Part shown: positions 1 through 35,654 of the stretch, piece by piece
Layout: every line of letters begins with the position of its first letter
How positions within the stretch are numbered: the stretch's first letter is position 1
From: Pseudogymnoascus verrucosus
Lineage: Eukaryota
Assembly: GCA_001662655.1 (NCBI GenBank)
Contig: KV460214.1
Reading direction: 5' to 3' (one strand)
DNA length: 64,000 nt
Translations under genes and position numbers: made by a program
Notes under the pieces: model-generated
The model's database searches: none
Told to the model about the DNA's origin: nothing
What the model saw: the letters and a program-made list of their open reading frames with translations, nothing else

Positions 1-1811
1 AAGCGACTCGCCCACCAAAACACCAGAATATGACTATTACTACTACTACACTACCACCACCTTATATAATAACCCTTATTCTATTGCAATTGATTCCTGG
101 CGCCTCTCGCACGTACGAGCATTATGCCCCATATTACCACATGTGCCACATCGCCGCTGTCGGCCTGTAGAACCCACCTGCCGAGTAGTCTCACTTGCCA
201 CCTCCGTACGGAGTTGAGCATCAACCTCAGCACTCTGAAGGATATCCTCTCCCTCTCGTACGGAGAGACTGCCCCCTTGCATTATACGCCTCTTACGCTT
301 CCTTTCCCTCCTCTTTTTCTGTTCATTTGCAGCCTGTAGAGCCTTAACCTCTGCCTTAAGTAGAATAGCAGAATGCATCATCATTTCTGCCCCTTTAACA
401 AGGCAGCTAATAGCATCATTAATTGAGGTAGGAGAGCTGTTCTGATGTCGTACGATGCAGTTCTTAATGTGCTCTGTTTGAAAGTTAAGCTCCCGTATAG
501 TTTAAGGAGTCTTTGAAGTCCAATTGCTACTCTCAACTATAGGAGGAGTTGGAGTCCTTAAGCGTAGATTTAAGTAAGAGAGGACAGTCTGTAGCTTGTA
601 CGGAACTAGCCCTGTAGCCTAGAATCCGCTCTTAATGTTCTACTCTATAAATGTAGCTTTGAATGCTTCTTTGAATGTAGAGAGGAACTCGAGCTTTGTA
701 ATGTGGTTTAGCTAGTTTTGTACGAAGGTTTCAATCTGCTTTCCGTACGAGAGCTTTAGTGGCGCAAAGCAGCTTACATTAAGAGGCTGAAGAATGTGCA
801 ACGAGTGTGGTGGCATACAGAGGGTAATTATCTTCTGTTCTGTGCAGTAGTGTTGAAATTGAGCAGAGAGGTGGCTCTCATGCCTATCGAGAATAAGAAG
901 GCGATAGGTTCCGACCGTACGAGCATTTGTATGCTGATCGAAGTGTTAAATCTACTCGTACCTAATTGAATTTAAAGTCCACCCATTCTCACTTAGTGTA
1001 ATTACCTAGTCGTGTAGTAATCCTAAGTCCTCGTACTAAGTAGAGAGGTGATTCTGTGCCTTGAAAATAATGAATGGCGGGAGTGCCCATCCGTACGAAT
1101 TAACACCTTAAATAATTAACACCTACTCTCTATTTCTAGGCTGTATAGTCTTTAGACGGCTCTTTGCTTCTAAGCTTGTAACTACTTTTGCAGTAGCAAT
1201 AACTCCTATTGTGAAACCTACTTCATCAAAGTTGTAGATGTCCTACTCTAAGATTCCGTATTTTGTAATTGTGTTTCGTACGAGGGAGAACCACCCTTTA
1301 ATTATCTTCGGATCTTCGCATTTTGCTCGTTTATAGTCATACTTCTGACTAAACTTTGCTTTAATTTCCGTACGACGCTTTATGAAGTTAGTAGTCCAAT
1401 TCTTCCCAACAGGGCTCTTGCCTCGTTCAGAGAGTAGAAGGTCAGCCATTTCTTGTACAGCTTGCGGCCAGGGGGGAAATCCACGTGAATCTAGGTCGAG
1501 AATGTACTGAACGAGAGCTGACTCTTCGTACGAAGTCAGATTCTGTGATTTAGGAATAGAATCGCGTTAAGAAGCCATTCCGTGAATCCGATCGCGTAAG
1601 GTCGTTCAGGGGATATCGTACGAAGCTGCAGCTGCTCGAACACTTCGAAATTGGCCTTGTTTGATTGCATTAATAGCCAATAGTATTCGATCCTCTTAAT
1701 TAGAGGATTGGGCTTGTGTTGGTTGTGGCATGTTTACATTTGTCAAGTCGACGCGTTTTAGTGTTTTAGTAGGCGAGTCGCTTGTGTAGGCGAGTCGCTT
1801 GTGAAATACGT
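1..1811 (-). mobile_element. Fot1/pogo-like DNA transposon (Tc1-mariner superfamily), RIP-mutated; left TIR cut by the window edge
   Basis: The right TIR (~1761-1811) ends ...GTGAAATACGT followed by TA and has an internal 17-bp direct repeat. Positions 1-24 (AAGCGACTCGCCCACCAAAACACC) are the reverse complement of 1760-1783 except for transitions. The element encloses a decayed transposase. Confidence 0.93.
76..1731 (-). pseudogene. Fot1/pogo transposase pseudogene (HTH-psq, CENP-B-type HTH, DDE, C-terminal CCHC knuckle)
   Basis: Manual translation from ATG 1731 gives MPQPTQAQSSN*EDRILLAINAIKQGQFRSVRAAAASYDIP*TTLRDR...DSRGFPPRPQAVQEMADLLL...VGKNWTTNFIKRR, ending RRCGTCGNMGHNARTC. Many TAA/TAG/TGA stops are explicable by C>T or G>A transitions. 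Confidence 0.92.
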
Positions 1812-2004
1812 TATAGGTTTTTTTTTTTTTTTTTTTTTCATGGTTGTTTCTAAAATCTGCGAATAAGTTGTAATCTATTTATTATTTCAACTTTAATATT
1901 TTAACATAAATCCCCCCGGCCCCCCCATATCGGTCGTCATTAACTCTATTTCACACCTAATAACCTCACTTAGAAATACTACCCCGAATGAATCTAACAT
2001 GTAG

Positions 2005-2020
2005 AAAAAAGAAAAAAAAA
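2005..2020 (-). terminator. Probable RNA polymerase III oligo-T terminator of tRNA-Gly
   Basis: The minus strand reads T9-C-T6, starting about 30 nt downstream of the tRNA 3' end. Confidence 0.7.
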
Positions 2021-2049
2021 CACAACTCCGAATTGGAGAGTCTTTATTT

Positions 2050-2120
2050 TGCATCAGCCGTGAATCGAACACGGGGCCCATCGATGGCAACGATGGATTT
2101 TACCACTAAACCACTGATGC
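2050..2120 (-). tRNA. tG(GCC): tRNA-Gly (anticodon GCC), intronless, 71 nt
   Basis: The reverse complement reads GCATCAG TG GTTTAGTGGTAAAAT C CATCG TTGCCAT CGATG GGCC CCGTG TTCGATT CACGG CTGATGC A. Acceptor, anticodon and T stems are perfect, with A box TGGTTTAGTGG and B box GTTCGATTC. Confidence 0.97.
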
Positions 2121-2606
2121 TGGATTCCTGTTATCCAATTACCGTATTTCGTTCTATGTTAGCGGGCCCGGCTGCTTTTACCACCACGCTTTTCGGTTTT
2201 CGCGACTTCGCAAAAGCAGCCGCCCGTTTCTCGTTTCCCGTTTCCCTATTTCTGCAGCATCCAACACCACATTCCGTTTCTGGTTTCTACATCCTAGACC
2301 GTTGGGCGTCCCTAGGTGGGTTTCTAATTCTAGTATTTAGCTTTACGTTCGCACAAAGCTGTAGACATCATGTCGGCGTCGGCGCATGGCCCACCCCTAG
2401 TTTAGTGTCCACACACACCTGCTCCTTCTCTTCCCTTCATTCCCCCGTCTTCCCTTTCGTCTTTCCTACCATTTTCCTTCGCATCTTACCTCTCATATTT
2501 CCCTTGTTCTTGTTTTGCTTTTTACGCGTTACTTTGCTTGTCTCTTAATCTTTGAAGAGAACAGTGGTTATAAAGCTCTCAAAGGATGAACTACTAGCAG
2601 ATATCG
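2121..2606 (+). repeat. Element left-end segment U, copy 1 (abuts the tRNA 5' end)
   Basis: Alignable along its length with 13008-13479, and partly with 19506-19620 and 31962-32103. The pyrimidine-rich stretch ends in the stub ORF (I/M)KLSKDELLADI. Confidence 0.9.
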
Positions 2607-3114
2607 AGCAGCAGGGTGTTACGGCTGGAACATGCAACCCATATGCCGCAAGGTACAGTAATAAGGTATTTATTGTGTTCTACTGTGAAGCTTCTGCTCC
2701 GTTTGCCGAAGAGACTGATTACGGTTGTCGGGGATGGCCACACAAATTCGCGTGCAGTTCTCCGTATTCCGGAATTACCTCCAACAGTACCTCTCTCCAA
2801 GTTATCTGTAGATAAGACCCTTATCTTTTAAACCTATCATATCAACCATCAAGCAGCCCTATACATCTCTTACTCTACGACTGTCTTTAGTAATATGCAC
2901 CCTTAGGTGGAACTTTATTTGAGCCGTCTTCCCACGTTTTTTATTTATAATGCATCCTAGTCCCCGCAGCAGCAATTGTTCTAGCTGCAACCCATGCTTG
3001 CCGGAAACGTATGCCATCTCGTGAACTCCACGCTTTCTTTGTTCAAAACCAAAGCTTCTTAAGAGTACGAGACTTTCGTAACCGTCGTCTCAACGAGAAT
3101 CACCTGCACGCCTT

Positions 3115-4727
3115 ATGTCAAGTACAAGATCTCGCCAGGGATGTGAAGAGTGTCGACGGCGACGCAGAAAGTGCGACGAGCAGAAGCCTTGTTGTGGGCA
3201 CTGCTCGGCTTTTAATAGAACATGCAGTTATCAATTGAGAGTAGTATGTGGTGGTGGCGGCGGCCGGAAGCACAAAAGGCCCCTACTTGGCCAGCCCTTG
3301 CGACATGCAGATCGATATGTTGTAGACACAGGTAAAGTAAACTTGATTCGTTATTAGCCACCACCCGCATTAACTGATGCTAGTCAATGAGAACGGTGCA
3401 TTAGTACACCGCACAAAGGACTCTACTGGGAAAGCCCGTGAGCTGTCAAATGCTCTGCCTCGATGTCTGCAAAATGGAATTTCCCTACCGCCAAAGTATC
3501 AAAAGCTCCTGGTTTATTTTATAGATGATGTTCTCGCCTCTCTATCGTGCCACCCCTCGATACAGGAGGACCTCCGCATGGGGCTGGTTCCCGTGATGCT
3601 CCATTCGCCCCAACTCATGTCAGCTTGCCTCGCCCTATCGGCCGCTGGCTTTCTATCGCGGGGGATCTTGGAGGTGGAGGGTGTTGAAATCCCGAGGATC
3701 TTGGGGCATTTACAAACTTCGGGTCTCGCACTGTTGAGAAGTGCCTTGGATTCCGGGGAGAGGACCGAGACCTTGCCGGCTACGTGCTTGATTTGGTGCC
3801 TGACAGATGTCTTTACATACCGTCAGGGGATATCATCCTGGCAAATCCATTTACAGGGCATCGGAGCCCTGCTGGACGGAAGTGAGGCCCATCGCGACTT
3901 TGCCACTCCGTCTGGGTCTTTTCGGTCTGCAATGAGACACCTCTACCAACTATACCTCTCTCTACAAACTCTCCCTCACATACCTACAGTGGAATCTCTC
4001 GAGAATTCAGCACAGTTAGGCGTACGAGCCTCTCAAAATTCCGAATGGACATCAATGACAAGCCCCGAGATAGATGGATTCTTGGGCTATAGTAGCGAGC
4101 TCCTAGATGTTTTGCAGCAAATCGATCAACTATCCCGTTCCGTCTCCGGAAACGAAGCACAGTCGATATCCGAAGCCGATATCCTCCTTGGCAAAGTCCA
4201 AGGCATGATTAGTCGTGACACAACATCTCCACGAGATATCTCGATCTGCACGCCCTTATCTCCGGAATACAACCGCGAGTTCGCTCTCTGCCATCAGACC
4301 TTCCAACAAGCCACATTAATCCACCTATACAGAAAATTATATCACCATCCGTCGGGCTCCCCGTCCATACAAGCTGCCGTTCGATCGATCGAGGAAATGG
4401 TCGGCAACATGATCCAGGGACAGCCGTGCCACACCTGGGTCGCTATGGCGATGCCTCTTTTCACGCTCGGCTGTGAAGCCTTCACCGAGAAGCAGCAGGT
4501 CTTTACGATGGATAAAATCAAGAAACTAGAGGATTGCATTGGATCGCTACATGTGAAATGTATTCGACAAGCTTTGGAGGATATTTGGAAAGTTAGAGAG
4601 GATCTAGGGGACCGTGAGGGAACGCTGTGCGCAAGCCAACTTCTTGGTAGGTGCCGCTTCGAAGATGTACGCTTAAGGCTAATGTTATGATGCAGCTGAA
4701 CTGCGATATAACATCATACTATTCTGA
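3115..4727 (+). CDS. Zn(II)2Cys6 transcription factor with Fungal_trans_2-type domain (about 3 exons)
   Basis: GCEECRRRRRKCDEQKPCCGHCSAFNRTC motif. Introns at ~3332-3383 and ~4647-4695. The last exon reads ELRYNIILF*. Confidence 0.88.
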
Positions 4728-5051
4728 TATTTGCAGAGATTTGATCGACACGAATAAGCAATAAAACACCGAGGCGAATAAATGCCACTTGAACTTCCAA
4801 CTATGGGCCATCACGATAAGACATAGGAACATTGCATCTTTGGTTTCTATGGAATCAGGTGATAAAACAGCTCACTAGGCGCACAAACGACAAGCAGCAA
4901 AACAGGTATATCACAGAAAAGGTCAATTTTAACAACATCACAAGCAGCTACTACCCAACACATAATGTCAGCCACGGCCAAGTCTGACCCAGTCGCCTAA
5001 GCACTTAAGACCCGACAACCAAGATCTAACCCCGTCTGCGATCGTTCTCTT

Positions 5052-6581
5052 TCATAACTCGGAGTTATCTCCCGCATCAATCATTCTGCTCAAAGGCCCC
5101 TTTTTCACCATCATGCTCATAATCTCATAAAGCACATCGGCCGCAGCCATGGTAGTGTGCTCAGCATTCGTATCGTAAGCGGGCTATATGCGGATTCCTG
5201 TTAGTCGACGCTCCCGCTCAGATTTCCAAAGGCATTAACAACATACCGCAACCTCAACAATATCCGCCGCAATCAAATTAATATTCTCCAGCCCGCGCAG
5301 GATCGTCCGAAGCTCTCTCGTCGACCAGCCCCCCGTCTCGGGCGTGCCTGTGGCGGGCGCAAACGCAGGGTCGAGAGTGTCAATATCGATGGATAGGTAG
5401 ACAGGTCGCTCGGTCCCAACCCTGTCGACGATCTTCTTGATGATGCCCTCTGTGCCGATGGTGTCAATCTCGCGCGCCTCGACGATCTCGAACCCGCAGT
5501 ACCCGTCGTTGTCGTAGTCGCTAGGCCCACTCAGCGTGGTGCGGATACCAGCGTGGATGTTGGTGTCGTTGGAGAGCAGGCCCTCCATCGCGGCGTGGTA
5601 GAAGTAGGTCCCGTGGTTGATGGCCGCGACGTCGGAGGGGGATCCGCCAAAGACCTTGGGCTTCCCTGTGTTTTGGGATTGGGATCAGTACTGATGTATA
5701 TCGAACTGGGGCTGGTGGGGGGGGGGGGCTTACAGGTGTCGAGGTGGCTGTCGAAGTGGATCACCGAGACGGGACCATAGGCGCGGTTGATGGAGCGCAG
5801 GAGCGGTAGGGAGATGGTATGGTCTCCTCCGAGGGTGATCACGCGGGGTAGGGTTCTTCCCTGGATCGCGGGGCCTCTTTTGTCGGCGTCGGTTGCGGGG
5901 GCGCGGGAGAGGATCTCAAAGTGGCCTTCCTCGATTTGTTTGAGTGCGTATGTGTTGTCATATCTTGGTCTCTGTCAGTGTCATCATCTAACGTACATCG
6001 GGAGTCTTACGAGGTAACGGGGATATCACCACAATCGAGGACAGTGGCCCAGCTGTTGAAGGGGTTCGTTTTGAGGGGGACGTTGTAGCCTCCGCTGGTG
6101 TTCTGGTCAGTATTCGTTCGATTGACAGGGTGTGATGGGCAGGTTATATACTAGAGATTCAGTCGGCGGGAGCCTTGTCTAATGCCCGAAGGCCCGAAGC
6201 GGGCGCCTGGGCGGTAGGAGGTTCCGGTATCGAACGGGGCACCTTATTAAAACATTAGCTGTGTTCAATCAGAGAACTAATATCTGTTTCATACCGATGA
6301 ACGCAATGTCGTATTTTGCATCAGGGTTCTGAAGGCAGGGCTGGTAGGGGAGACGGCCGAAGGTAGTAATGCCAGAGAAGACAGAGTCCGCCTAGAGTTT
6401 GTAAGCAGTTTGACCTCGGAAGGAGTTATATGCCTGGGAGTCAAATGACCTGCGTGCCGCCATCTCCGGGCAGTCTGGTGTACCATAGGGACTGATGGGG
6501 TCCTTCGATGACTTTCTGGTCATGCCCAGAATGAGCGGTGGCAATGGCTATCCAGCCGAGTGCTAAGAGTGCGGCGTACAT
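5052..6581 (-). CDS. Agmatinase/guanidinobutyrase-like ureohydrolase (arginase family), multi-exon, with signal peptide
   Basis: Motifs [35 protein letters not shown] and [14 protein letters not shown]-terminus [17 protein letters not shown]-terminus DNSEL*. Confidence 0.92.
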
Positions 6582-6770
6582 TATGCTTCCTGGTTTTAAT
6601 TTGGATTTCTTGGGGAAAAAAGCCTATGAGGATTTATCAGTGGCAGCGGTTCATTTCTTATATCACAAATTTGAGTTTGACCTCGTCTAGAATTGACTAA
6701 TGTTGTTGAAGGCGCTCCTGCCAACTATGCCGTCCCGTTAAGTGCCGCCATAGTTTCGAAGCTTTTTACA

Positions 6771-6974
6771 CAAATAGTATCGATAAGACTTAAAAATATC
6801 TCATCGTGGTGGTTCCAGGCGCGTATTTTACTACATCCAGCTTGGCGGACCTGCCTCCACGTTTCTTGTCTGCAAATGGTATCGATAAAACTTAAAAGTA
6901 TCACATCATGGTGTTTCCAGGCGCCTATTTTACCACATCCAGCTTAGCGGATGGGCCTCCACGTTTCTTGTCTG
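6771..6974 (+). repeat. Two-copy 102-bp tandem duplication in the divergent agmatinase/MATE promoter
   Basis: 6771-6872 and 6873-6974 both run CAAAT(A/G)GTATCGATAA...CCTCCACGTTTCTTGTCTG. Confidence 0.92.
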
Positions 6975-7413
6975 TCCCCAGAATCCCGCAACAACACCCA
7001 GCTCAGTTATCGTGGGTATATTACCAGATAAAGTTAGCGCAATATGCATATTGTGGATTGATAGTGCTGCATATCTCCAGCGTGCATGGATTACGTCTCC
7101 GTGCAAAGGCTTGTATCTACACCATGTTATTAATATCGGGTCTCTACGTTATTGTGGCATGTCAAATAGTAATTCCGACGTCTTATCGTCGAGCCCTGTG
7201 TTGATCGGGATTTTAAGGGCTGAACATTGGTCGATAACGATGTATGTATGATAGCGCTGATAATACATCAAATGTCTTGCACAAATATTCCGGTGGCTAA
7301 AAGCCTATGGGTGACCACGCTTGGGTGCAATTTGATCTTGTCTGAAAGGACGATCTGAAAGGGCGACCGCGCGAACCAAAACACGAGTTGAGGTACAACC
7401 CCAAGCTTTCGAC

Positions 7414-8931
7414 ATGAGTCCGAAAACATCTACAAGCATGCAAAAGTCGCGAGCCCAGGAGGGCAGCTTCCCGTCAGTCCTCGAGGAACATCTGGATGAA
7501 ACGTCGCCTCTGCTCCCAGCTTCGCCATCAAGCCGATCAACTGCCCGACCAGAATACGTCGAATGGCTGGCTGAGATGTGGTTCTTGACCAAGGCGTCCA
7601 TCCCGGTCATTCTGGCCTATATGCTCCAGAATAGTCTGCAAACGGCCTCGATATTGGTTGCAGGGCGAATTTCCTCGGAAGCGTTGGCAGTCGCCGCGTT
7701 CTCCTATATGTTTGCAATGGCAACAGCATGGCTAATCGCCCTTGGTGGAACGAGCGCTTTAGATACTCTAGCCTCGAGCAGTTTCACGGCCTCCAAGGAC
7801 AAAGGAAACCTCGGTATTCTTCTGCAGAGGGGAATCATCGTTTTAACTGCTTTCTATGCAGTAGTTGTTGTTATATGGGGTCTCTCCGAGCACCTCTTCA
7901 GGGCGCTTGGACAGCCAGAGCACATTTGCATGCAGAGTTCCAAGTTTCTTCATTTACTTGCCCCGGGTGGCCTTGGCTATGTCTGGTTCGAGTGCATGAA
8001 GAAATTCCTTCAGGCCCAAGGGATATACCGACCCGGCACATACGTTCTTTTTGTTACCTCGCCGCTCAATATTATCCTCAACTATCTCTTCATTTTCACT
8101 TTTAACTTTGGTGTATACGGCGCGCCAGTAGCAACGGGCATCTCATATTGGCTCTCGTTTCTTCTCCTAGTGGCTTACGCGGGACTCGTTGGAGGCAAGG
8201 AATGCTGGAGTGGGTTCAAGCCAAGACAAGCTCTTAGAAACCCATGGCCTTTTGCCAATCTTGCGTTTTTAGGCGTCATCCATGTCGGAACAGAGTGGTG
8301 GGCGTTCGAAATTGTTGCTCTCGCCGCTGGCCGGCTCGGCACCCTACCCCTTGCAGCTCAGTCCGTTGTCATGACGACCGATCAGATTATCACTACTATT
8401 CCATTCGGCCTCGGTGTTGCCGAGTCGGCTCGATTGGGCAACTTGCTGGGGGCTAAAAACTCCAAGGGAGCTAGACGATCTGCACATTGCGCTGCTATCC
8501 TTTCCGTCTTCTTCGGCTCCGTCATTCTCACTATTTTGTTCGCGACAAGAAATGTCATTGGTGGTCTATTTAGCGATGACAAGCGCGTCATTGCCCTTGT
8601 TGCTGAGATTATTCCATATGTTGCACTGTTCCAGGTTGCAGATGGATTGAATGGCAGTTGTGGTGGGGCCTTGAGGGGTATGGGCCGCCAGTGGGTTGGG
8701 GCACTTGTTAATTGTATAAGTTACTATGGAGGTGCTCTTCCTGGGGGGGTTTATCTTGCCTTCCACGGATGGGGTCTGGCTGGTCTGTGGCTGGGACAAT
8801 GCGTGGCGCTGTCGCTCGTGGGCATTTTGGAGTGGGTCATCGTCGGGTTGAGCAACTGGGACAATGAGGTCCGGAAGGCTGCCGATCGATTAGATGATAA
8901 TGAACAAGAACAGCTTGTCTTACCCAGCTAG
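7414..8931 (+). CDS. MATE family efflux transporter
   Basis: 505 aa with about 12 hydrophobic segments. Motifs ALDTLASSSF, EWWAFEIVALAAG, RLGNLLGA and GALRGMGRQ. Confidence 0.93.
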   Translation: MSPKTSTSMQKSRAQEGSFPSVLEEHLDETSPLLPASPSSRSTARPEYVEWLAEMWFLTKASIPVILAYMLQNSLQTASILVAGRISSEALAVAAFSYMFAMATAWLIALGGTSALDTLASSSFTASKDKGNLGILLQRGIIVLTAFYAVVVVIWGLSEHLFRALGQPEHICMQSSKFLHLLAPGGLGYVWFECMKKFLQAQGIYRPGTYVLFVTSPLNIILNYLFIFTFNFGVYGAPVATGISYWLSFLLLVAYAGLVGGKECWSGFKPRQALRNPWPFANLAFLGVIHVGTEWWAFEIVALAAGRLGTLPLAAQSVVMTTDQIITTIPFGLGVAESARLGNLLGAKNSKGARRSAHCAAILSVFFGSVILTILFATRNVIGGLFSDDKRVIALVAEIIPYVALFQVADGLNGSCGGALRGMGRQWVGALVNCISYYGGALPGGVYLAFHGWGLAGLWLGQCVALSLVGILEWVIVGLSNWDNEVRKAADRLDDNEQEQLVLPS

Positions 8932-9737
8932 TAGACAATAGAGACCAAAACAATACGGTCGAATATCAAGACTTGTCACGTGTGTTCTGCCCCCTTCCGC
9001 AGTAACTTACGTAGCAAAGACCAGAGAAACGTCTCGCATACGCCTAGATAAACCCAGGTTATCCTTCTCCTGAAATTATGAGGTTAAAGAGGATAACGTA
9101 TAATTATTTATATTGAAGTCTAGGTGAAGATAAATCATACAAAAGAGGCTTCTGCTATGTGATATTTTTGGTGAGGAAAGCTCGGACTAGGACTAGCCGT
9201 TTTTGTTCGATATTTAGCAAACTCTATGTAACCCTTCACTATAATTTACTATGTAATGGTACCCCCTTTTTTTGCCCTTCGATGATGCATTTACTTCCTC
9301 TGACTATGAGCCAGCGGTTCCGACGATCACACCCTTACCGCATCCGCTAATCAGACGTTGCGGATGAGGCGCTATTCCAACGCCAGGGGATAGATAAGCA
9401 ACTTAGTCGTATGGGAGGTCTGCTCTGATAAGGCGCGTACATTTCCCTTCTTGGTCTTCTTATTGCCTTGTAAGATGCAACAGTGGAGATAGGTAAGGGA
9501 GATAAGGAGCCGGAGTTTCAGGATACCATACAACCAACAGACGAAGCATCTAACTTACCTCTACAGCGCATAGCTACGATAAGGTCGAAATTATGAGGTA
9601 GTTCTGTATCGTATATAGCTGTATATAATAATATTTATATACGACGATCCCAAGCATTGGCTTCAGTAATGTACACTGGCGGTTCGTTCAAGCTGAACTA
9701 TTACAATTAATTGATTTTGACGACATACTCCAGGACA

Positions 9738-11536
9738 ATGATCTCCAAGAGTATGGAGAATGAGAAACAGCTCGCACTTGCTATAGATTCAGGAGGCTCC
9801 GTTGCGGATGGATCAATAAGCCATGCAGCGAATGAAATAGTGTTGAGTAAAGAAGGCTTTAAGCTGTTCCCTCAACCTGTACTTGGCGACAACCTTGACC
9901 CTCTGAACTGGTCCTTCGTTCAGAAGCATACGATTTTGGCTATTGTAATGTCTATGTGAGTTTTACAGCAGGCATTTTATCTCCATTCTAAAGTCAATTA
10001 AGCTCGGATTCTAATACATTGGCATTGTTAGCTACTTCATGTTCACCTACATCACGACCACTACAGTGCCATCATTCCCAGCGCTGGAGGAGAAGTACTC
10101 TGCTAGCTTGGAACAAATCAATTGGACAGTCGCAATTCCTGCTCTTGGTCTCTCCGTCGGACCGCTGCTATGGGCCTCTATAGCGGGCATCATTGGACGT
10201 CGTCCTATTCTCATATTCGGCACAGTTATGGCTCTGGCCGCCACAATTGGAGCTGCTCTTGCCCCGAACTACTCGAGTTATATGGCTGCACGCTTCTTTC
10301 AAGGGCTTGGTGTCAGCCCGGCATCCAATGTTGGCCTAGCCGTAATAAACGACATTTTCTTTGAACACGAGCGCGGCCAAAAGGTGGGACTCTGGGTATT
10401 GGCAATTGATTTGGGTCTTTACTTTGGGCCACTTATAGGTGGCGTTATCAATCTTGCCGGTCACATCTGGATTCAGTGGCTATCCGCTATTCTCTTCGGA
10501 GCGATCTTAATTGCTGAACTCCTTTTTCTACCGGAGACTTTATACCCACGGCACCTCATGCTATCCAAGGTATACCGTGGAGATGTGTCACAGCAGGGTG
10601 TCGAGGAGATTTCAGTCAGAGACTCTACTGGTGAACCTGAGAACATACTAAAAACCAAGCGGCTCCCATTCATAAATGTTACTCCGCTTCCAGGGGTCCA
10701 GCATCCGAAGCCTTATGACACTATGACCCAATTTATTAAAACATTCAAGTTCATTGTCGTTCCTATTTCAATCATGACCTATTGCTTTGGTTGGTACTGG
10801 TGGGTACTGTCAGTGGTCACTCTAGTTCCAATCGCATATGAGCAATATCCGCCACAAATTCAGGGGTAAGCGTCACTATTAGTGCATAATTAAGGGAATT
10901 GTCACGCTAAATTATTACAGACTTCTTTATCTTGGGCTCATTGTGGGTACCCTGGTCTCCGAGGTCCTTTATTCCGGTAGTTTGAGCGACTGGATAGTGA
11001 TCAAACTAGCCAAACGCAACAACCACCAGAAGACTCCTGAGATGCGCATCTGGCTTACCTATCCCGCGGTTATTCTCACCGCAGTTGGGTTGGTTGTCTG
11101 GGGGGTCAGTATTGACCGCGGGTATCACTGGATGGTAGGCCAAGTCGCTTTGGCTATTTGTAAGTCAGACCGGATGATCCTTTCTTTTTCAACTTCCGCT
11201 AATTGCTGCTATAAAGTTGGTGCTGGTGTTCAAATGGGCAACACTGCCATTTGTTCGTATGTGGTGGATGCATATCCCTTGCAAAGCATGGCTATGATGA
11301 CCTTCTATGCCGTGATGCTCAACTTGTCAGCATTTCTGGATCCATTTTTCATTGTTTCGTGGGTGGAAAATATCGGGTTTACTTGGACGTTCATTGGCCA
11401 CGCCATTATCACCGTTGTCGTTTGTATTCCAGTAATGGCTGTGCTTCACCGGTTTGGGAGAACACTGTGCGAGAAGTCTGGAAGCCCAACATGGGTAAAT
11501 CCAGAGTATGAAGTTCATACTCCCAGTAGTATATGA
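9738..11536 (+). CDS. MFS transporter (DHA1-like), about 4 exons
   Basis: PQP..D.LDPLNWS N-terminal motif, plus IGRRPILI, DIFFEHERG, FLPETLY and PEMRIW. Confidence 0.9.
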
Positions 11537-11731
11537 TATGAGATGATATAAATGATATGGTATGATATAAATGATATGATATATCATATAATACCATACC
11601 ACGATGAAGTTTTTACATAGGGATAGATATCATCTCATATCACGGTCTTCACCATGTGATATATCATATCATATCACACCACTTGAAAGTCCCATATAAT
11701 GATATAAATGATATGATATCCACGCAGGCCT
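11530..11731. repeat. Degenerate (ATATG)n/(CATAT)n array with inverted blocks; possible MITE remnant
   Basis: GATATGATAT-type pentamers occur on both strands. ATGATATAAATGATATG appears three times. Confidence 0.7.
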
Positions 11732-11783
11732 CCACGTACCATCGCGTGCTACTATAATACCTACCGATGTGTGAGGAAAGGCG

Positions 11784-12491
11784 TTGCTTCTTTCGCCGCA
11801 AATTGTCATCCCAAGTAAGGTTTTCTATGCACTGTTAGCACGGCCCAGTATGCAAATGTTGATATTCTTACCTCAAAAAACAGAGTATGACCTCTTGCGT
11901 TTTGCAGCTTCCTTGGGACAAGACCGCCGGTCGTCGCCTTTAGACGGCATGTGTTGCCATGATAGTCCAACGAATTTTGTCAGGAATGTAGAATCTCAGC
12001 TACCTGTTCAGGATTTGGAAGGGCAGTGTAGATTGTTGTATAATCGCAGTAAACCTGATGAAGTTGTTCAGGGAACTTGGGGGAGACCATGCTGAGTCGA
12101 TGGCTGGCACGACAGTATTTATGGAACCAGTCAACTGTTTTCGCGCGTCTTACGTTGCTGTTGCGGCCAGGAGGTTACGTGACCTCTGGGCTCGAGGCAA
12201 ATTTCCGAACGAGAAGAGGTGAGTACAGGTAAAAGCACTGAAGCCAGCCAACCATCCCCCGTTTCCAGGAAGCCGCTGTCGTGATCGAATACACAGGATG
12301 CGGCCTTTGGAGAGGCCCGAGGCGGATTTCGGAAATCGACTAACCGTTTCGCGTTTTTAAGCGCTCTTAGGCCGCTTCGGCGGTCGTCGAAGGTAGAGAT
12401 AGGCGTGCCTAGTGGCAGTGAAAGTAAAAGCAGCAATGGCCTAAGAGCGGGAACACGGAAGCGGAAGGCTGACAACAGGGGACGGTTTTAG
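11784..12491 (+). pseudogene. Decayed ORF running into element right-end segment D
   Basis: One frame of about 235 codons is broken only by three TGA stops. It includes STNRFAFLSALRPLRRS (also at ~18795-18845) and GTRKRK. Confidence 0.4.
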
Positions 12492-12947
12492 TGGTGGTCT
12501 TAGCAGCAAAAGCGATGGCAGCTCACAGAGAATTAGGCATCTCTGCTAGAGATGGTCGCTGAATGAGACGACTTTAAAGTTCCTGTTTATGGAAACTTGA
12601 TAGCCAGTTGCTGTATCGTGAGAGTGGTTCTAAGGCTAATGCCGCTTTTATCTAAAAACACTACACTAAATCCCGGAAACGGTAAATCAGCTGTTTAGCG
12701 GTTGATTGTCTAGAGGTACTGCATCTACAATATACAGGGGTGGATGCCTTTAGGCGCGGAGTAAAGCGCAGACATTAGGTGATGCACCTTTAACATTAGG
12801 GCAAGGAGCTAGACGCTCCGAACCAATTATTAGGCTTGAATCACGCGTCCCCATGTCTAGATCTAGATCAATTCTAGGCAACTGAGCGCTAAAGTGTCGC
12901 TGCTTTTCCCAGACTTCAGAAAGGAGAAATCAGGAAATGGTAAACCG
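12222..12947 (+). repeat. Element right-end segment D, copy 1
   Basis: Alignable with 18681-19445 and, in its last ~230 bp, with 35381-35594. Confidence 0.9.
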
Positions 12948-13007
12948 GCATTAGGGGGCCTAAAGTCGAACGGCATCGATGGATTAATACCACTAAACCA
13001 CTGATGC
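12948..13007 (-). pseudogene. T-arm-less tRNA-Gly-like junction sequence, copy 1
   Basis: The minus strand reads GCATCAGTGGTTTAGTGGTATTAATCCATCGATGCCGTTCGACTTTAGGCCCCCTAATGC. The first 20 nt are identical to the tRNA at 2050-2120; there is no T arm or B box. Confidence 0.88.
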
Positions 13008-13479
13008 CAGATTCCTGTTAACCAATTACTGTATTCCGTTCTATGTTAGCGGGCCCGGCTGCTTTAACCACCACGCCCGTTTCTCGTTTCTTGTTTCCCC
13101 ATTTCTGCACCATCCAACACAACATTCCGTTTCTGGTTTCTACATTCTAGACTGTTATGCGTGTCCAGTGGTTTTCCGATTCTAGGATTCAGCTTTCTGT
13201 TACGCACACACTGTGGAAATTATGTCAGCGCATGGCCTACCTCCAGTTTGGTGTCCACACACCTACTTCTTCTCTTCCCTTCATTCTCCTGTCTACCCTT
13301 TCGTCTTTCCTGTTTTCTTCCCTCGCATCTTACCTCTCATTTCTCTTTTGTTCCTGAGAATTTTCTTGGCTATTTTTCCTTTTTTACATGTTACTTCTTT
13401 GCTTGTCTCTTAGTCCCCTGATGATTGAAGTAGTCCGTGGACATGAAGCTCTCAAAGGATGAACTACTTGCAGATATTC
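13008..13479 (+). repeat. Element left-end segment U, copy 2
   Basis: Colinear with 2121-2606. Ends in ATGAAGCTCTCAAAGGATGAACTACTTGCAGATAT (MKLSKDELLADI) at 13443. Confidence 0.9.
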
Positions 13480-14184
13480 AGGTTGTAGATACGACGAATC
13501 TGTAGACACGCACTTCTGGATTCCCTTCTGCGGGTGTTAAAGATGACTTTGTGAACGTTGTGGAAGAGAATGCAAGCATTTTTAGTGAGAAGACTGCCGC
13601 AGTTGCTATGAAGTATGAGCCCTTCTGCTTGCGCTATTCTTGCATATTTAATGAGGATCAGCTAGCCTTAAAACAGGGAATCCGAGCATCAGAGTGATCT
13701 CGACAAGCGCATGCACTACACGGCCTATGAATTAGACAAGAATAACAATGTTATTGCAGCTCAGCACTTGGTTAAACAGAGATAGGTGATGGTTTAGAGG
13801 CTAAGCGGCTAGGAGGCTCAGATTAGTGAAAGCGGCGAGGGTGGAAACAGATATTTGAGGCGGTTGGTGCTCGTTCAACACGAGAATCAAGATATGGTGC
13901 GAGATCTGGGTTGTAGAAACCAATATAGTTCACGTCTATATAGTAGCCATGTTGAAATAAAATAGGTCACTGAGCCTCAGGATATCCCTTGTCTTGCTTT
14001 TTGCACTCAAAGGTTCACTGCGAGTGCGATAGATGCCCGAAGTCGAACTCGATACAGGACACTTCCTTCCGACGGGACAACTTGCTTACTCCGGCTAGGA
14101 GTGAAGCGACCAAGCCGATCCGACGATTAATAGATGATTGAAGAATGAAGATAATGATCAAATGGTCAAATAAAAAGACACATC

Positions 14185-15075
14185 TCAAGCCCGATCCTCC
14201 CAACTCCGCTTCACTATTCCCCAATATCTTGCTGGATCAGATCTCATGTGTCCCACATGGCTCGTACCCTCAAACTTCACCATCTCAACCCTCAGCCCAT
14301 TCCTCTCCGCTTCTTTTGCATGCTCCTCAACATCCCTATCCAAAACAACCTCATCCCCATCTGAGTAGATATAACATCTCTTCGCCTCCTTGCGGATGAA
14401 TTCCGGCCTAACAGAATTGAAAATCACTAAAGCCGAAATCTTCTGTCCCATGATCTGTGGTAGGATATAGCAGAAAAGCAACAAGATGCTGAACATCAGC
14501 TGCATAGGCATTCTCAAGTACCAAGTTGCAGGTAGGCCGAGAGAAAATGTCGCGAGCCCTTGCTTAAAGCGCGCCGTTCCAGGCAACGAGTCATATACAA
14601 TGGTGTTTGCCGGTAAGGGTTGTCCCGTCTCCGCGAGATATTGCTTGGATATTAGCGCGAGTTGCCCGCCGCCGCCGTTGGACATGGCGTGGACTAGGAG
14701 GTCATTGCGGGAGACTTGCCTCTCGTCGGTGTAGGCGCGGATGGCACTGATTGCGGGAGCGAGTGTGGCCAGGCGGTGCTGGATGGAGACGGGGAAGAAG
14801 TCGGATGCGGAGCTTGTGACAAGCAGAATAGGGGTGGAGGGATAGAAGATTTGGTAGTGGGAGGTATATTTTGAGATGTGGCGAGAGGATGCGTTCATCC
14901 ATGATACTAGGAAGATGAGATGGGGTGCATTGGTGTCTGGATTTGGCAGTGGTGCTGAGTCGCTGTCGTGCGTTCCAGAGGGGGTGTAGAGGTATGCTTT
15001 GCTGCTAAGGCGCTTGAAAGATTGAAGACTGTCTAATTGTGAGGCTTCAGCAGCTGTAAGTATAGGTATCTCCAT
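14185..15075 (-). CDS. DUF829/TMEM53/PaxU-like alpha/beta-fold protein
   Basis: Motifs SWMNASSRHISKY, HAMSNGG, YDSLPG, YIYSDGDEVV and HVGHMRSDPARYW. Confidence 0.85.
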   Translation of the reverse strand: MEIPILTAAEASQLDSLQSFKRLSSKAYLYTPSGTHDSDSAPLPNPDTNAPHLIFLVSWMNASSRHISKYTSHYQIFYPSTPILLVTSSASDFFPVSIQHRLATLAPAISAIRAYTDERQVSRNDLLVHAMSNGGGGQLALISKQYLAETGQPLPANTIVYDSLPGTARFKQGLATFSLGLPATWYLRMPMQLMFSILLLFCYILPQIMGQKISALVIFNSVRPEFIRKEAKRCYIYSDGDEVVLDRDVEEHAKEAERNGLRVEMVKFEGTSHVGHMRSDPARYWGIVKRSWEDRA

Positions 15076-15827
15076 ATCTCTGAGACAATTTTACAATTTA
15101 GGAATCAAAATGGAATGGCTAGGTCAGGACTGGCTGGTGCAAGTTCTAAACAACGGATAAAGCTGAGTGTTTATCTGGCCTCGATTATTATATGTGATTA
15201 TCATTCTTCAATCACCCCTGTTAGAGATAGAAACATTGTAAGCATGAGCATTAACAGGATTCGAGATACGCCGAGCCCGACTCATAAGGTCAGGTCGGTA
15301 GGTCCAAATACTTAATACTTCGCTATCTATTTGATACATTTGCGGACATTAGCACACAGTTCATCCGGCTTACATCTTTTGAAGACTTTGATTCACTTTG
15401 ATCTTAGATCCACATCTAACCTCTTAATATTAATGTGGCATGGCAGCAGAAGAGGAAGCTATTCCCGCAATACGTCGTCGCGTCTGCCTAGTCTACACTC
15501 CAACCTCAACGGTGAGCCGAGGTACGCAGGGATTGAATGGTCGTCCCGACTCTCCGACGCCTAGAATGCTTGTTCGTACATAGCCTCACAGGACGAATTT
15601 ACAGCTTACAGAACTCAAACGGGCTGCCTAATTAAAGTCTAATGTACCATTTCGGGCCAAATTGTGAACGAATAATAAAGACATTAGTATAAGCAGCTCC
15701 ACGAGCGGGACAATTAATGCCGTGAGTGCAATTTCTGTTCAACCACGTCGGTGACATTCCCATTTAAAGCTAGAGATCTCCTCTTCACATCATCTAGCAT
15801 AGAACAGCTATAAATCTGCTCGCAAAA

Positions 15828-17252
15828 ATGGCCAAATATACGCCGACAACACCAACAATCCAAGTCCTCTCCAAACAGAACTACGAGGACCAACACCTCG
15901 TGGCCCTCCCCAATGCCCTCCCTCTTCCACCTCTCACCCCACACTCCCTACGCATCTGCACAATAATCCTTTCCTTAACCACCAACAACTTCACTTACGC
16001 ACGCTGTGGTCATCTCCTCGGTTGGTGGGACGTGCATCCTCTGCCTCCGTCCATCCCTGCTGAATTCGCCAACCCGCAGGATTACGGAAGGGTATCGGCT
16101 TGGGGCTATGGCGTTGTGGTGGAGAGTACTGTTCCTAAAGGTCTAGGTATCGAAGTGGGAACGCACGTGTATGGCTATCTGCCAATTGGAACGCTACCTG
16201 TTGACATGCACGTCGAGATCAGTGCAGACGCGAACGGACAGTTTGTGGAAATCAGTCCGCAGAGAGAGAAGTTGATGCCGGTTTACAACCGCTACCTCTT
16301 CTACTCGTCAGAAACGACCGCCCAGCAGAAGGCCGAGCGGAAGCAAAGCGAAGGCTATGATTCTCTTTTGCAAGTCCTATTCGAGGCTGGCTACATGATG
16401 AATCGCTTCGTCTTCGCGTGGGACTCGAGCGAGCTCGTGCATCCCTCCGGCGCCGATTCGGGTTGGACTACCGAGGACGCACGGATCGGGGAAGATACGA
16501 TCCTGCTGCTGTTCGCGGCGAGTGGGAAAACAGCACTTGCGTTCGCCCACCAGTTGAAGTATGGCCGTCCAGCAGGGAAGTCCTCGCGCAAGGTTGTAGG
16601 GGTGGGATCAGACGCACCAAGGGCTTTTACAGAAGGAACAGGGCTGTACAATTCCGTGCTGACGTACGATGCTGATGATGACCATGACATTGGTGTTGAG
16701 GTTGGCGCGGATGCAGACTCGAAGGTTGTCGTCGTCGATTTTGGCGCTAGAGGCGGAGCAGCAGATCGGTGGGCGGAGAAGTTGAGGAAAAGTAGTAAGA
16801 GCGTTACGCTCCTAGGTGTAGGGGGCGAGGTTGCAGCGGAAAGCCAGGAGGTGACAACACAGAAGATGGTGAAGCGCATGGCGGCTGGGAGAATGCAGGT
16901 AAACACTTCAGGGATGAGATCCCAGGCGGTGGGGATTCTAGGGCACAAGACATATTTTGAGGGGCTTTTGACGGAGTGGAGGACGTACAGAGAAAGGGGA
17001 GTGCCGAAAGGGCTGCAACTAGTATGGGGCAAGGGAATGGACGACGTGGGGAAAGGGTGGGAGAGGTTGTATAAGGGGGAGGTAGGGCCGGATGAGGGAC
17101 TAGTGTTTGACTTTTGTCAAGTTGACGCGTTTTGGCGTTTTCGTGGGCCACTTGCTTGTGTGGGCCACTCGCTTGTGAAATACCTTATAATATATACCCT
17201 ATCTGTGCTGATAGACAAGAGGTGTGTGTGGTTGGGTGGTGGTCTTGCGTAG
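15828..17252 (+). CDS. DUF2855-like protein; last ~46 codons are transposon-end and flanking read-through
   Basis: LTTNNFTYARCG..LGWW, YGRVSAWGYG.V.ES, YGYLPI, VYNRY, ASGKTALAFA and the family-like end GEVGPDEGLVF. Confidence 0.8.
   Translation: MAKYTPTTPTIQVLSKQNYEDQHLVALPNALPLPPLTPHSLRICTIILSLTTNNFTYARCGHLLGWWDVHPLPPSIPAEFANPQDYGRVSAWGYGVVVESTVPKGLGIEVGTHVYGYLPIGTLPVDMHVEISADANGQFVEISPQREKLMPVYNRYLFYSSETTAQQKAERKQSEGYDSLLQVLFEAGYMMNRFVFAWDSSELVHPSGADSGWTTEDARIGEDTILLLFAASGKTALAFAHQLKYGRPAGKSSRKVVGVGSDAPRAFTEGTGLYNSVLTYDADDDHDIGVEVGADADSKVVVVDFGARGGAADRWAEKLRKSSKSVTLLGVGGEVAAESQEVTTQKMVKRMAAGRMQVNTSGMRSQAVGILGHKTYFEGLLTEWRTYRERGVPKGLQLVWGKGMDDVGKGWERLYKGEVGPDEGLVFDFCQVDAFWRFRGPLACVGHSLVKYLIIYTLSVLIDKRCVWLGGGLA
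17113..17185. mobile_element. Solo Fot1-like terminal (TIR) fragment
   Basis: TTTGTCAAGTTGACGCGTTTTGGCGTTTTCGTGGGCCACTTGCTTGTGTGGGCCACTCGCTTGTGAAATACCT followed by TA aligns without gaps to 1739-1811 + TA. Confidence 0.88.
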
Positions 17253-17413
17253 GGTTTGAGGTGAGGAAGCAAATACGCGACTGCAGGGTGGTTGACAAAT
17301 GGAGTTATTAACAAACATTTTCTCAAAGGTCTATATAGATGGATTTTTCAAGTCCTATAGCAAAATAATTATATTATATTGTGCAGACAGCGAGAAAGGT
17401 AGCTTAGCCCCGT

Positions 17414-18211: not shown

Positions 18212-18680
18212 TAGTGGGTTTATATTATGAGACAGGTTTATTTCAAGATAAATGTGTACTTAGAGTAAGGCGCTACTCTAGCTTCAAGATAATTTCGATA
18301 CTTAGCGATGGCTAATGAGAAAGAGTCTTCTAGACCTCAAGGGCATCTACAACAGTTATATATAATTGCTCGAGGAGCAGGCACACAATAGTATAAACGG
18401 ATCGCCACGACTTGACCTCTTAATTCTGTACAACACGCAATTGACCAACCGTATGGCGGTTATATGCCACGTCACCGATACAGGCAAAGACACTTTAGGG
18501 ATGTTAGCTCATTGGTAGCTTTCTGTAGTCTGCAATATATGTAGCGCCGACTAGAATGGAGCTGAATTTTAATCTACGCGGCCTTAGACGGGCTGTGGCC
18601 TTGGGGTAGACTTCAGAACTAGGCAAGCCGCTCCTCATTTTGAGGAACTCTTATGGCTACCCGTGGGCCTCCCAAGTGGC

Positions 18681-19445
18681 AGTGCAAATAAAAGTACCGA
18701 AACCAACCAACCATTCTCCGTTTCCACGAAACCGCCGCCGTGATGCCAGACACAGGATGCAGCCTTTCAAGAGGCCCGAGGCAGATTTCGGAATCGACCA
18801 ATCGTTTCGCGTTTTTAAGCGCTCTTAGGCCGCTTCGGCGGTCGTTGAAGGTGGAGATGGACGTTCCCAGTGGCAGTGTAGGTAAAAGCAGCATTAGTCC
18901 TAGAGCTGGGAACACGGAAGCAGAATGCTGACAACGGGGGACGGTTGTGGTGGTGGTCTTGGCGCGGGAGCGATCACAGACGGCAGATAATGGGCATCCC
19001 CGCCAGAGATGGTCGCTGAATGCAACGACTGAGATTTCTGTTAATGGTAAATTAATAACCAATTGCTGTAACGCGTGAACGGTTCTAAGGCTAATGCTGC
19101 TTTTATCTAACAACACCACCACACGAAACGGGCAAACGTACACAGCTATCGCAAAACGGGAAGATGTACGAGGTAGCGCTTTGCAAGGTAAGAACCCAAG
19201 GTTGGAACACGCTAAGGAACTATACTGCATCCACAATATGCAGGGGTGGGTGCGGGTAGTAATGAGCAGACATTGGGCTATGCACCTGTAGCATATGGGT
19301 AGGGGGCTAGAGGCACTGAGCTAATCACTAGTCTTAAATCACGCGGCCTCATGTCTAGATCCAACTCATATCTAGGTAACCGAGCGTCAAAATGTCGCTG
19401 CTTTTCCCAGACTTCAGAAAGGAGAAATCAGGAAATGGTAAACCG
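18681..19445 (+). repeat. Element right-end segment D, copy 2
   Basis: Colinear with 12222-12947, including a 43-bp identical block (18803-18845 = 12345-12387). Confidence 0.9.
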
Positions 19446-19505
19446 GCATTAGGGGGCCCAAAGTCGAGCGGCATCGATGGATTAATACCACTAAACCACT
19501 GATGC
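19446..19505 (-). pseudogene. T-arm-less tRNA-Gly-like junction sequence, copy 2
   Basis: The minus strand reads GCATCAGTGGTTTAGTGGTATTAATCCATCGATGCCGCTCGACTTTGGGCCCCCTAATGC. Confidence 0.88.
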
Positions 19506-20302
19506 CGGATTGTTGTTAGCCAATCCCGTATCGCCCCATATGTAGTTTGGGCACCGGCTGCTCCGTCAGCTTCCCGCTGCTTTTGCGATGCGCCATTTTT
19601 CACGTTTTCGCCACTTTAGAGTCGGTCGAACATGCGTGGCAGTGCAAGCAGGGTTCTGCCCTTCCTCGGCCTACCTAGGGGCTCAGAACGGAAAGTAACT
19701 AATGGGCACACAGTACTGTATAGTGTGTGATGTCTTTGTTTTGGCCCCTCCTACACTTTGCTCAGCCAAGCCAAGAAGTAGCCAGAACAGGGGTTCGCAT
19801 GAACAGAAGATGGCTAGTTTTTCGCTGATTCGGGCGTAAGGCCTAAATAGATGAGACTAGACTGAAGTCGATGGTATGACAGTATGCAGGGCAGAAGGCA
19901 CGTTTTGGAACTTTTCGGGTTACGAGGCTCTAGTGTCAGAGCAGAGGGTCTGGAGACTCCAGGTCTCAGGTGCATTTCAGAACTAGCTAAATCGCACTAA
20001 TTCCGCAATAGTATATATAAGCTCAAAGTTCCAAAGTGTAGAGGTGCTATATCAAAATCACAAGAGGCTAGTTTAAAGGCAGAATATAAAGCGGTTGCTA
20101 TATATAGAGGGCACGTGATTATAAAACTAATGAACTGGAGTTGGAAATTTAGCCTATTCTTCGGAACGGGCCGGATGAACAACATTACGCCTGCATCTTA
20201 GATTTAAACGCGGGGGTGCCACGCTGTCAACCTCGCAGTTGATCTTATCCCTATCAACTACTGAGAACCATCATATCATAACTCTAGAGAAACAAGCCCA
20301 AG

Positions 20303-31807: not shown

Positions 31808-31961
31808 GGGAAAGGCCATCATGGCCCTAGTAATTGATGCTTACGTGGCTAATCATGAGGTTCCCAAGTGGGTCGTGATTGTCACCAATAAGGGCCAAGA
31901 GGAGTATGTAGTCCTAAAGTTAGTGTTAAGGTTTCCAAACGTATATACGCTCTTTGTTACA

Positions 31962-32103
31962 GCGACCACGCAAAAGCAGGTGCCCGTTTCTCGTTTCCTC
32001 GTTCCCTATTTCTGTAGTATCCAACACAATATTCCGTTTCTGGTTTCCAGATCCTAGGCTGTTATGCGTCCCCAGTGAGTTTCCGATTCTAGGATTTAGC
32101 TTT
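31962..32103 (+). repeat. Internal fragment of left-end segment U (orphan)
   Basis: CGCAAAAGCAG..GCCCGTTTCTCGTTTC...ATCCAACAC..ATTCCGTTTCTGGTTTC...ATTCTAG.ATTTAGCTTT matches ~2202-2344 and ~13075-13196. Confidence 0.88.
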
Positions 32104-32512
32104 CCTTGATAGATTTAATTGTTACTGTTCTATATACTGTACGTTCTATATACTGTACTCTATGCCGAAGCCCTTATTGCGGCTGCTTCACTTGATGCGT
32201 ATACAGCTAATAATATTGCTAAGCATCGAATAAATACCTGACATTCACTTACTTAAGCTGGGAAATATAGGGGGAGTACTCGTGCACGCCAAAGGTCCGA
32301 TGAGGAACAGTGGGCTGACATAGCAACTATGGCTTCGGACAAGACTTCCTATTATAGACTGTGATTATCAATGTTAATGGCCATAATAATAGCATGCTAC
32401 ATAGAAAACTAAACAGAAGACAGTTTTTAGCTACCTCTGTAGCATCTGTCACACCAACCTCACACAAACGTCTCTGTCCAAACTTCTGGGACACACGAGA
32501 ACCCTAAAGCGG

Positions 32513-35380: not shown

Positions 35381-35594
35381 TATACTGCATCCACAATATA
35401 CAAGGACGGATGCATTTGGGTGGGCAGTAAAGCGCGCACATTGGCTGTGCACCTACAAGCTACGGCAAGGGAGCTGAATGCTCTGAACCAATTACTAGTC
35501 TTGAATCACGCGTACCGATGTCGACATACAACTTGTTTCTAGGCAACTGCTTTTCCCAGCCTTCAGAAAGGAGAAATTAGGAAATGGTAAACCG
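35381..35594 (+). repeat. Element right-end segment D, copy 3 (truncated)
   Basis: TACTGCATCCACAATAT...AATCACGCG...CTAGGCAACTGCTTTTCCCAG aligns to 12717-12947 and 19222-19445. Confidence 0.88.
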
Positions 35595-35654
35595 GCATTA
35601 GGGGGCCCAAAGTCGAGCGGCATCGATGGATTAATACCACTAAACCACTGATGC
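35595..35654 (-). pseudogene. T-arm-less tRNA-Gly-like junction sequence, copy 3
   Basis: Identical to 19446-19505. Confidence 0.88.

Follow-up and report, generated by a model that had tools for sequence, protein, structure and literature searches.

What does a frame of 12 codons, found twice at the inner edge of a repeat in fungal DNA, represent? The DNA analysed here, referred to as the window, is a stretch of 64,000 nt from contig KV460214.1 of the Pseudogymnoascus verrucosus assembly GCA_001662655.1. With its Zn2Cys6 regulators, MFS, MATE and TRI12 transporters, GH3, DUF829 and DUF2855, the window looks like the DNA of a filamentous ascomycete. Starships are giant cargo-carrying transposons of Pezizomycotina, tens to hundreds of kb long, with direct repeats and often terminal inverted repeats at their ends, and a Starship captain is recognized as a DUF3435 gene standing first and facing inward. 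A preliminary description of the window had read the 12 codons as what remains of such a recombinase gene, namely its promoter and first codons. In this study the two copies of this remnant (the stubs) and the repeat that carries them (U) were followed into related loci and proteins, and the surrounding repeats, tRNA gene and carried genes were analyzed. The stubs and the copies of U are listed below.

2570..2616, + strand: stub 1, codons 1 to about 16 of a DUF3435 recombinase gene, with ATG changed to ATA
13443..13505, + strand: stub 2, ATG and 12 codons that are shared, followed by 8 that are unrelated and by a stop codon, with TTGTAG at 13483-13488 (translation and alignment)
2121..2569, + strand: U copy 1, recombinase gene upstream region with conserved blocks and a CT-rich promoter-like tract
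13008..13442, + strand: U copy 2
19506..19562, + strand: short U-like stretch after core copy 3, the first ~55 nt of U only; 2073-2176 matches 19453-19562 at 77.7%
31947..32104, + strand: internal U fragment without adjoining tRNA or core; 81.8% identical to 2186-2344 over 159 columns and 84% to the related locus L001

The stubs and their recombinase relatives

The letters of both 12-codon strings, at 2570 and 13443, are exactly those given in the preliminary description, and the strings differ at three codons (ATA/ATG, CTA/CTT and ATC/ATT), which amounts to the loss of one start codon and two synonymous changes. The position claimed for the stub was likewise confirmed: measured from the 5' end of the tRNA or core, it starts at 450 nt in copy 1 and at 436 nt in copy 2, and it points away from that end, with a CT-rich tract before it. 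There are exactly two copies of the 23-mer AAGCTCTCAAAGGATGAACTACT in the window, at 2573 and 13446; 0 of 100 shuffles had two. The frame of copy 1 (2549-2815, 88 aa) contains no Met, and copy 2 is an ORF of 20 codons (13443-13505) with an in-frame TAG 12 nt upstream. The stubs are incapable of making a recombinase; at most they may act as promoters or DNA sites.

U is about 530 bp long. The blastn program aligned 2086-2604 with 12972-13477 (74.7% identity over 550 columns, E 1.9e-105), and with softer scoring 2073-2604 with 12955-13477 (74.25% over 567 columns). Since U starts within the 5' part of tRNA-Gly and continues through the upstream flank of the tRNA, the stub is divergent from the tRNA, and U is the tRNA-Gly 5' part plus the upstream region of the recombinase gene. 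In a four-way alignment U contains several further blocks that are conserved as well as the stub.

A degenerate DNA pattern for the 12 codons was used to search metagenome_contigs, prokaryote genome_contigs (596 Gb) and viral_contigs. Two loci, L001 and L002, were found in metagenome_contigs, both on contigs of another assembly; with 0 matches in the 596 Gb of prokaryote contigs and 0 in the viral contigs, the pattern is specific. Both loci consist of a tRNA-Gly(GCC), then U (77-81% identical to the window copies), then ATG AAG CTC, and their captain start stands at the same spacing from the tRNA as in the window (436-450 nt). The tRNA-Gly and U of L001 are 80.8% identical to window positions 2049-2616. 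L002 is 89.8% identical to L001, and identical to it over the last ~75 nt before its break. The check that had been suggested for the stub, recovery of full-length relatives and a test for DUF3435, was thus carried out by DNA pattern search, and in L001 it recovered a full-length relative beside a U copy.

After the 12 codons the L001 frame runs on as MKLSKDELLADIELHGSTKKRPLKVAPPTDRGYKSILSHWEE, followed by a canonical GT..AG intron of 53 nt (5126-5178) with an in-frame junction to the next exon. An exhaustive HMMER search with this next exon returned 224 proteins at E<=1e-3. Five successive pieces of L001 are collinear on the Pfam profile DUF3435 (PF11917; profile positions 2-46, 50-85, 101-161, 172-209 and 214-276), with scores of 20.2, 13.1, 17.0, 15.4 and 16.4 bits, each below the gathering score of 25.8; the window stub is too short to score. 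Three of the 224, the long proteins P0005 and P0007 and the 344-aa model P0011, exceed that threshold with 134, 117 and 92 bits, respectively, and the L001 gene aligns with residues 8-516 of P0007, a DUF3435 protein of 799 aa, at a summed E of 4.7e-74. P0011 is a separate DUF3435 protein with the N-terminus MLSLEELLADIE, and residues 10-18 of P0007 read SKGELLEDA; both N-termini align with the stub and with the PPT.RGY...W block that follows it. Tyrosine recombinases carry the catalytic set R-K-H-R-H/W-Y. By eye, TRPGAVV, AIRRGAAN and LQARY of L001 stand against ARPGAVV, FRRGAAN and FQLSY of P0007, and GRK of L001 against GHK; P0007 also has a weak Phage_integrase match at residues 314-371 (21.7 bits), which is below threshold.

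Because the L001 frame runs into a DUF3435 gene and the N-termini of P0011 and P0007 align with it, these comparisons show the stub to be the genuine N-terminus of a captain-type DUF3435 tyrosine recombinase. The earlier reading of the stub as promoter and first codons of a lost recombinase is thereby borne out, as the same 12 codons lead into a recombinase gene in L001 and the window is without the rest. The stub-like N-terminal motif was present in only 2 of the 151 proteins compared, so it marks a narrow clade. Searches of the protein collection with the copy 1 frame (88 aa, among longer proteins), with L001 exon 1 and with residues 1-60 of P0011 returned no match, which is weak evidence. 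The L001 gene has three frame changes too short for introns (6109/6129, 6236/6238 and 6558/6513, within 6100-6560) and is probably damaged, a pseudogene, unless assembly errors cause these changes; no certainly intact captain of the tRNA-Gly-linked lineage has therefore been seen. Among the four copies of the stub there are 3 variable sites in 36 nt, all at third codon positions, a pattern which suggests that the lineages diverged while the recombinase gene was still intact.

The body of the recombinase is lost from the window. With L001 exon 1, tblastn matched 2570-2623 at stub 1 (78% of 18 aa, E 3e-5) and 13440-13499 at stub 2 (70% of 20 aa, E 3.7e-5). When eight pieces of L001 were searched against the window, only the two stubs were found (E about 3e-5), and everything else had E>=0.09; P0005, P0007 and P0011 gave no match in the window at E<=0.01, and the 19-mer that follows the junction in L001 is absent from both of its strands. 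A DUF3435 gene in first, inward-facing position is present in L001, and the window holds codons 1 to ~16 of it, twice. As the window is without a captain body, its units are classed as Starship relics or derivatives, not as members.

Proposed units at tRNA-Gly

U adjoins three further kinds of sequence, an intact tRNA gene, a conserved core of 108 nt and a longer repeat (L) that precedes the core.

2050..2120, - strand: intact tRNA-Gly(GCC), ARAGORN; Rfam tRNA at 57.1 bits (gathering score 29)
12900..13007, + strand: core copy 2, 108 nt; on its right, a tRNA-Gly-like 5' part in reverse complement, corresponding to positions 1 to ~51 of the tRNA
19398..19505, + strand: core copy 3, from the alignment of the repeat family of 108-nt cores
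35547..35654, + strand: core copy 4, same repeat family, 98%
12222..12899, + strand: L copy 2, before core copy 2; candidate right-end region for the left unit; 12222-13063 matches 18681-19562 at 76.2% over 899 columns
18681..19397, + strand: L copy 3, from alignments with L copy 2
35383..35546, + strand: L copy 4, partial; 12717-13020 matches 35383-35668 at 78.8%

The three cores are 98-100% identical, and beside U copy 2 a core takes the place of the tRNA gene. They keep the first 20 nt of tRNA-Gly unchanged, then match it in diverged form as far as about tRNA position 51, and the resulting partial tRNA-like repeats lie at 12955-13007, 19453-19505 and 35602-35654. The core is not scored as a tRNA (none by ARAGORN, none in Rfam at E<=10), and as a candidate for another known RNA it was rejected, with no Rfam family at gathering score and only two chance-level matches (E 3-4); its fold z-score is -2.1. 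L is non-coding, because its alignment shows 1-nt indels. Conservation of 98% in the core against ~76% in L suggests, on comparison of the copies, either constraint, as on a recombinase site, or gene conversion.

The order of the repeats is the same three times, each U having L-core on its right without change of orientation: U copy 1 (2121) is followed by L copy 2 and core copy 2 (to 13007), U copy 2 (13008) by L copy 3 and core copy 3 (to 19505), and the U fragment (31947) by L copy 4 and core copy 4 (to 35654). On the left, copy 1, L001 and L002 become similar at the 3' end of the tRNA, and beyond that point each has DNA unrelated to the others. In layout these are the marks of an island at a tRNA gene: the tRNA left intact on one side, a partial repeat of it on the other, and the recombinase start adjoining the tRNA.

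The stub is the real 5' end of a captain gene, with upstream region, start codon and the first 12-16 codons, and we consider it probable that the window contains captain-less relics of Starship-like elements integrated at tRNA-Gly. In intact relatives the captain gene would lie divergent from the adjoining tRNA-Gly(GCC). Each unit would begin on the left with the tRNA or a tRNA-like repeat, followed by U and the captain start, would carry ordinary genes, and would end on the right with the L repeat and the conserved 108-nt core with its tRNA-Gly-like 5' part. Two such units would stand in tandem, at 2121-13007 and 13008-19505, and a third, more decayed unit may span 31947-35654. Starship-like elements would have entered at tRNA-Gly, and the captain body would have been lost. 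This wider view of the repeats, as Starship-like relics linked to tRNA-Gly and arranged like islands, is moderately well supported.

The first unit carries genes for a Zn2Cys6 regulator (Zn_clus domain at 3115-3312, ~500 nt downstream of copy 1), an arginase-family protein and MATE and MFS transporters, and the second unit carries DUF829 and DUF2855 genes. At 10.9 and 6.5 kb, both units are small for Starships. None of the Starship auxiliary genes (DUF3723, patatin-like, NLR) was scored in the 37 window ORFs scanned, and no empty site or joint across a unit was found in the contigs of four sequencing runs. As for terminal inverted repeats, the one inverted match examined, in copy 1, did not recur in L001 or L002. 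The ends given for the units are approximate, since past cores 3 and 4 the sequence keeps a resemblance to the first 30-55 nt of U.

As measured by the identity of their copies (only 74-78%), the repeats are old. U copy 1 and U copy 2 share 74-75% with each other and more with L001 and L002 (81% for copy 1, 77-78% for copy 2), a relation that fits two separate element lineages side by side at one site and not a local duplication. Within the stretch 2.7-12 kb the carried genes are 97.6-99.8% identical in the runs that cover it, as expected of ordinary resident genes. Contigs of runs X5, X9 and X16 cover 2.7-12 kb and have zero cover over 14675-16008, where no joint across the gap is listed, so that absence of the second unit is not implied. 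In X5 and X9 zero cover extends on to 16675 and is found again over 17343-18676, and X16 has trace cover (1.46) in 16009-16675. In run X2 the summed depths over L and U are 3-6x those of neighbouring bins, a depth that is not a copy number.

Three other origins for the repeats were tried and rejected. A SINE or retro-copy origin of the minus-strand L-core was set aside, as the copies include DNA upstream of the tRNA-like start and the far end of L is without an A/T-rich tail. An LTR with a primer-binding site would need the tRNA-like part in the other polarity, and copy 1 has the whole tRNA gene. TGTTA was considered as a target duplication flanking U; at cores 3 and 4, however, homology runs on past the tRNA-proximal TGTTA.

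Separately, contigs in runs X2 and X5 join the end of a core (19505) directly to the interior of L (12424). Elsewhere in the X2 and X5 genomes, L-core units may follow one another without U.

The break near codon 16 and other readings

The preliminary description had the similarity of the U copies end after the same 12 codons. This holds between the two window copies, which in a MAFFT alignment part after GCAGATAT, and it fails for copy 1 and L001, which remain similar up to 2616, about codon 16. Of the continuation given there for copy 1, positions 2617-2665 (...VTAGTCNPYAARYSNK) match no recombinase or other protein and are not captain sequence. L002 loses all similarity to L001 after ...CTGCATG; in copy 1 the loss comes a single base further on (2616/2617), and in copy 2 it falls within about 11 nt. 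The six bases after the break are TGTTAG in L002, TGTTAC in copy 1 and TTGTAG in copy 2.

2617..2622, + strand: TGTTAC hexamer directly after the copy 1 break; L002 has TGTTAG at the same place (alignments)

Beyond the hexamer, the three truncated copies are without mutual similarity (local scores of 10-12 against shuffle means of 11.9-12.9). Because L002 groups with the intact L001, at least two of the truncations are independent, and probably all three. Simple random deletion does not explain a cut that recurs at codon 16; a recombination-prone site in the 5' coding region of the captain would explain it, which on three truncated copies we offer as a lead.

The furthest-reaching alternative to the preferred reading builds on this cut. 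It holds that the captain recombines inside its own gene, at a working site near codon 16 by TGTTA(C/G), and that the tRNA-U-stub modules are not random deletions but attachment sites, reusable landing pads or excision scars which donate a promoter and start codon. The agreement of the breaks to within 1 nt in copy 1 and L002, and to about 11 nt in copy 2, would follow from such a site, as would the hexamers after which similarity between the copies ceases. TGTTA[CG] is rare, with 42 occurrences on the + strand of the 64 kb; L002, being nearest to the intact L001, was truncated independently of the window copies; and L001 is without a Met of its own between the break and the conserved region. 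However, this rests on three truncated copies and one intact one, and L001 itself lacks TGTTA at the break site. Comparison of the stub site with the tRNA/core site revealed no sequence likeness, and a marginal inverted match between the stub junction and the tRNA boundary of copy 1 (19 of 27 positions, equalled in a fraction of 0.018 of the shuffles) has no counterpart in L001 or L002. Published Starships, moreover, have the captain inside the element, for example at 1,390 bp from the 5' end in Tangerine, according to the available part of the source (10.1101/2025.11.25.690456). We regard recombination within the captain gene as unlikely. If it were true, it would allow the cargo downstream of the stub to be replaced site-specifically, an integron-like exchange in a eukaryote, and a recombination site at the codon-16 break would point to a mechanism for the rapid and still unexplained cargo turnover of Starships.

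Passive segmental duplication would dispense with mobility altogether: a host segment with tRNA-Gly and the start of a neighbouring recombinase gene would have been copied, the tRNA having no role and the segment never having been a transposition unit. The age of the copies (74-78% identity), the likeness of the genes between them to ordinary fungal genes and the lack of any mobility evident from the contigs of four sequencing runs all agree with this. Random duplications, however, would not share an end, and in copy 1, L001 and L002 alike the similarity starts at the 3' end of the tRNA; the right ends coincide too, at codon ~16. Each U also has a partial-tRNA core on its right, always in one orientation, and the gene concerned is itself a site-specific recombinase. 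Such a duplication seems to us quite improbable. A third possibility, that the 12 codons are non-coding, being a chance open frame or an upstream ORF in a conserved promoter or leader that now serves downstream genes, would suit the missing start codon of copy 1, the mere 20 aa of copy 2, the equal conservation of other U blocks and the place of copy 1 ~500 nt upstream of the Zn2Cys6 regulator gene, but it is contradicted by L001, where these codons form the first exon of a DUF3435 gene, by the alignment with the N-termini of P0011 and P0007 and by the confinement of all three variable sites to third codon positions, and is very improbable. Any leader role for the regulator gene today would be a later re-use.

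Comparison with known elements and further observations

Captain-less Starship-like relics at tRNA-Gly, the reading preferred here, can be compared with three known systems. In the text consulted, the targets of published Starships are 5S rDNA, AT-rich DNA and short motifs, TTAC(N7)A among them (PMC11162782), those in 5S rDNA being Voyager, Arwing and Aspergillus members of the Enterprise family (Gluck-Thaler et al. 2022, PMC9156397; Gluck-Thaler and Vogan 2024, PMC11162782). As described in the accessible parts of both sources, 5S Starships resemble the units here in having a DUF3435 tyrosine recombinase as first, inward-facing gene and ordinary genes as cargo (PMC9156397; PMC11162782). They would further be alike, as far as those parts go, in that the target is a small multi-copy RNA polymerase III gene of which part is repeated at both ends. 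On the same sources, the target here would differ in being a tRNA-Gly that is left intact, whereas 5S insertions are internal and disruptive, and the tRNA-like repeat of ~50 nt is longer than the reported direct repeats of 6-16 bp. The units here are also only 6.5-11 kb, stand in tandem and have lost the captain. A 2024 Starship survey used tRNAscan on insertion sites, and its available text reports no tRNA target (PMC11162782); in the 2022 Starship paper, as far as its accessible text extends, tRNA genes appear only as a bacterial analogy (PMC9156397). No report of a tRNA-linked captain or a tRNA-Gly target was found in the portions of open-access papers and bioRxiv consulted.

That bacterial analogy (PMC9156397) concerns genomic islands and integrative conjugative elements at tRNA genes. 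In these, likewise, the tRNA is intact on one side and repeated in part on the other, with a tyrosine-recombinase gene directly adjoining it. Adjacent units share one site in both. The units here differ in their eukaryotic host, in a DUF3435 enzyme in place of a phage-type integrase and in having no transfer functions. Bacterial islands usually repeat the 3' part of the tRNA; here the 5' part is repeated, and the recombinase lies upstream of the tRNA. Cryptons are tyrosine-recombinase transposons of fungi with 1-2 genes, thought to move via a circle by site-specific recombination and without large terminal repeats. They resemble the units here as tyrosine-recombinase elements of fungi, are set apart by description, being small with 1-2 genes where DUF3435 captains form a family of their own, and have to our knowledge no reported tRNA target.

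If the preferred reading is true, fungal giant transposons have converged on the strategy of bacterial islands, tied to a tRNA that is kept intact and stacked unit upon unit, and a half-tRNA core together with a captain stub would be a simple annotation mark for old, captain-less insertions. The regulator, arginase and transporter genes between the repeats may then have come as cargo.

Several further features of the window and of L002 were recorded. The Zn2Cys6 regulator, the arginase-family gene (5235-5974, - strand) and the MATE and MFS transporters lie together at 3115-11536, between U copy 1 and L copy 2, and may form a small co-regulated cluster. On the left flank of the tRNA, the contig depths summed over 1-1815 reach thousands in X2, X5 and X9, against 20-50 in neighbouring bins, depth again not being copy number, and contigs join 1731 to 17107; this segment looks like a multi-copy transposon of which an end of ~85 nt recurs as a fragment at 17104-17189. 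In L002, positions 800-1100, beyond the tRNA and on the strand opposite the stub, contain by eye a stretch (...GDFNLHH...) like a LINE-type endonuclease motif. Two inverted repeats of 61 nt (22671-22731 and 23604-23664), 98% complementary and 872 nt apart, make 22671-23664 look like a small terminal-inverted-repeat element. A unit of 102 nt is present in two tandem copies at 6771-6974 (88% identical), and the 94 nt at 52337-52430 match their own reverse complement at 72%.
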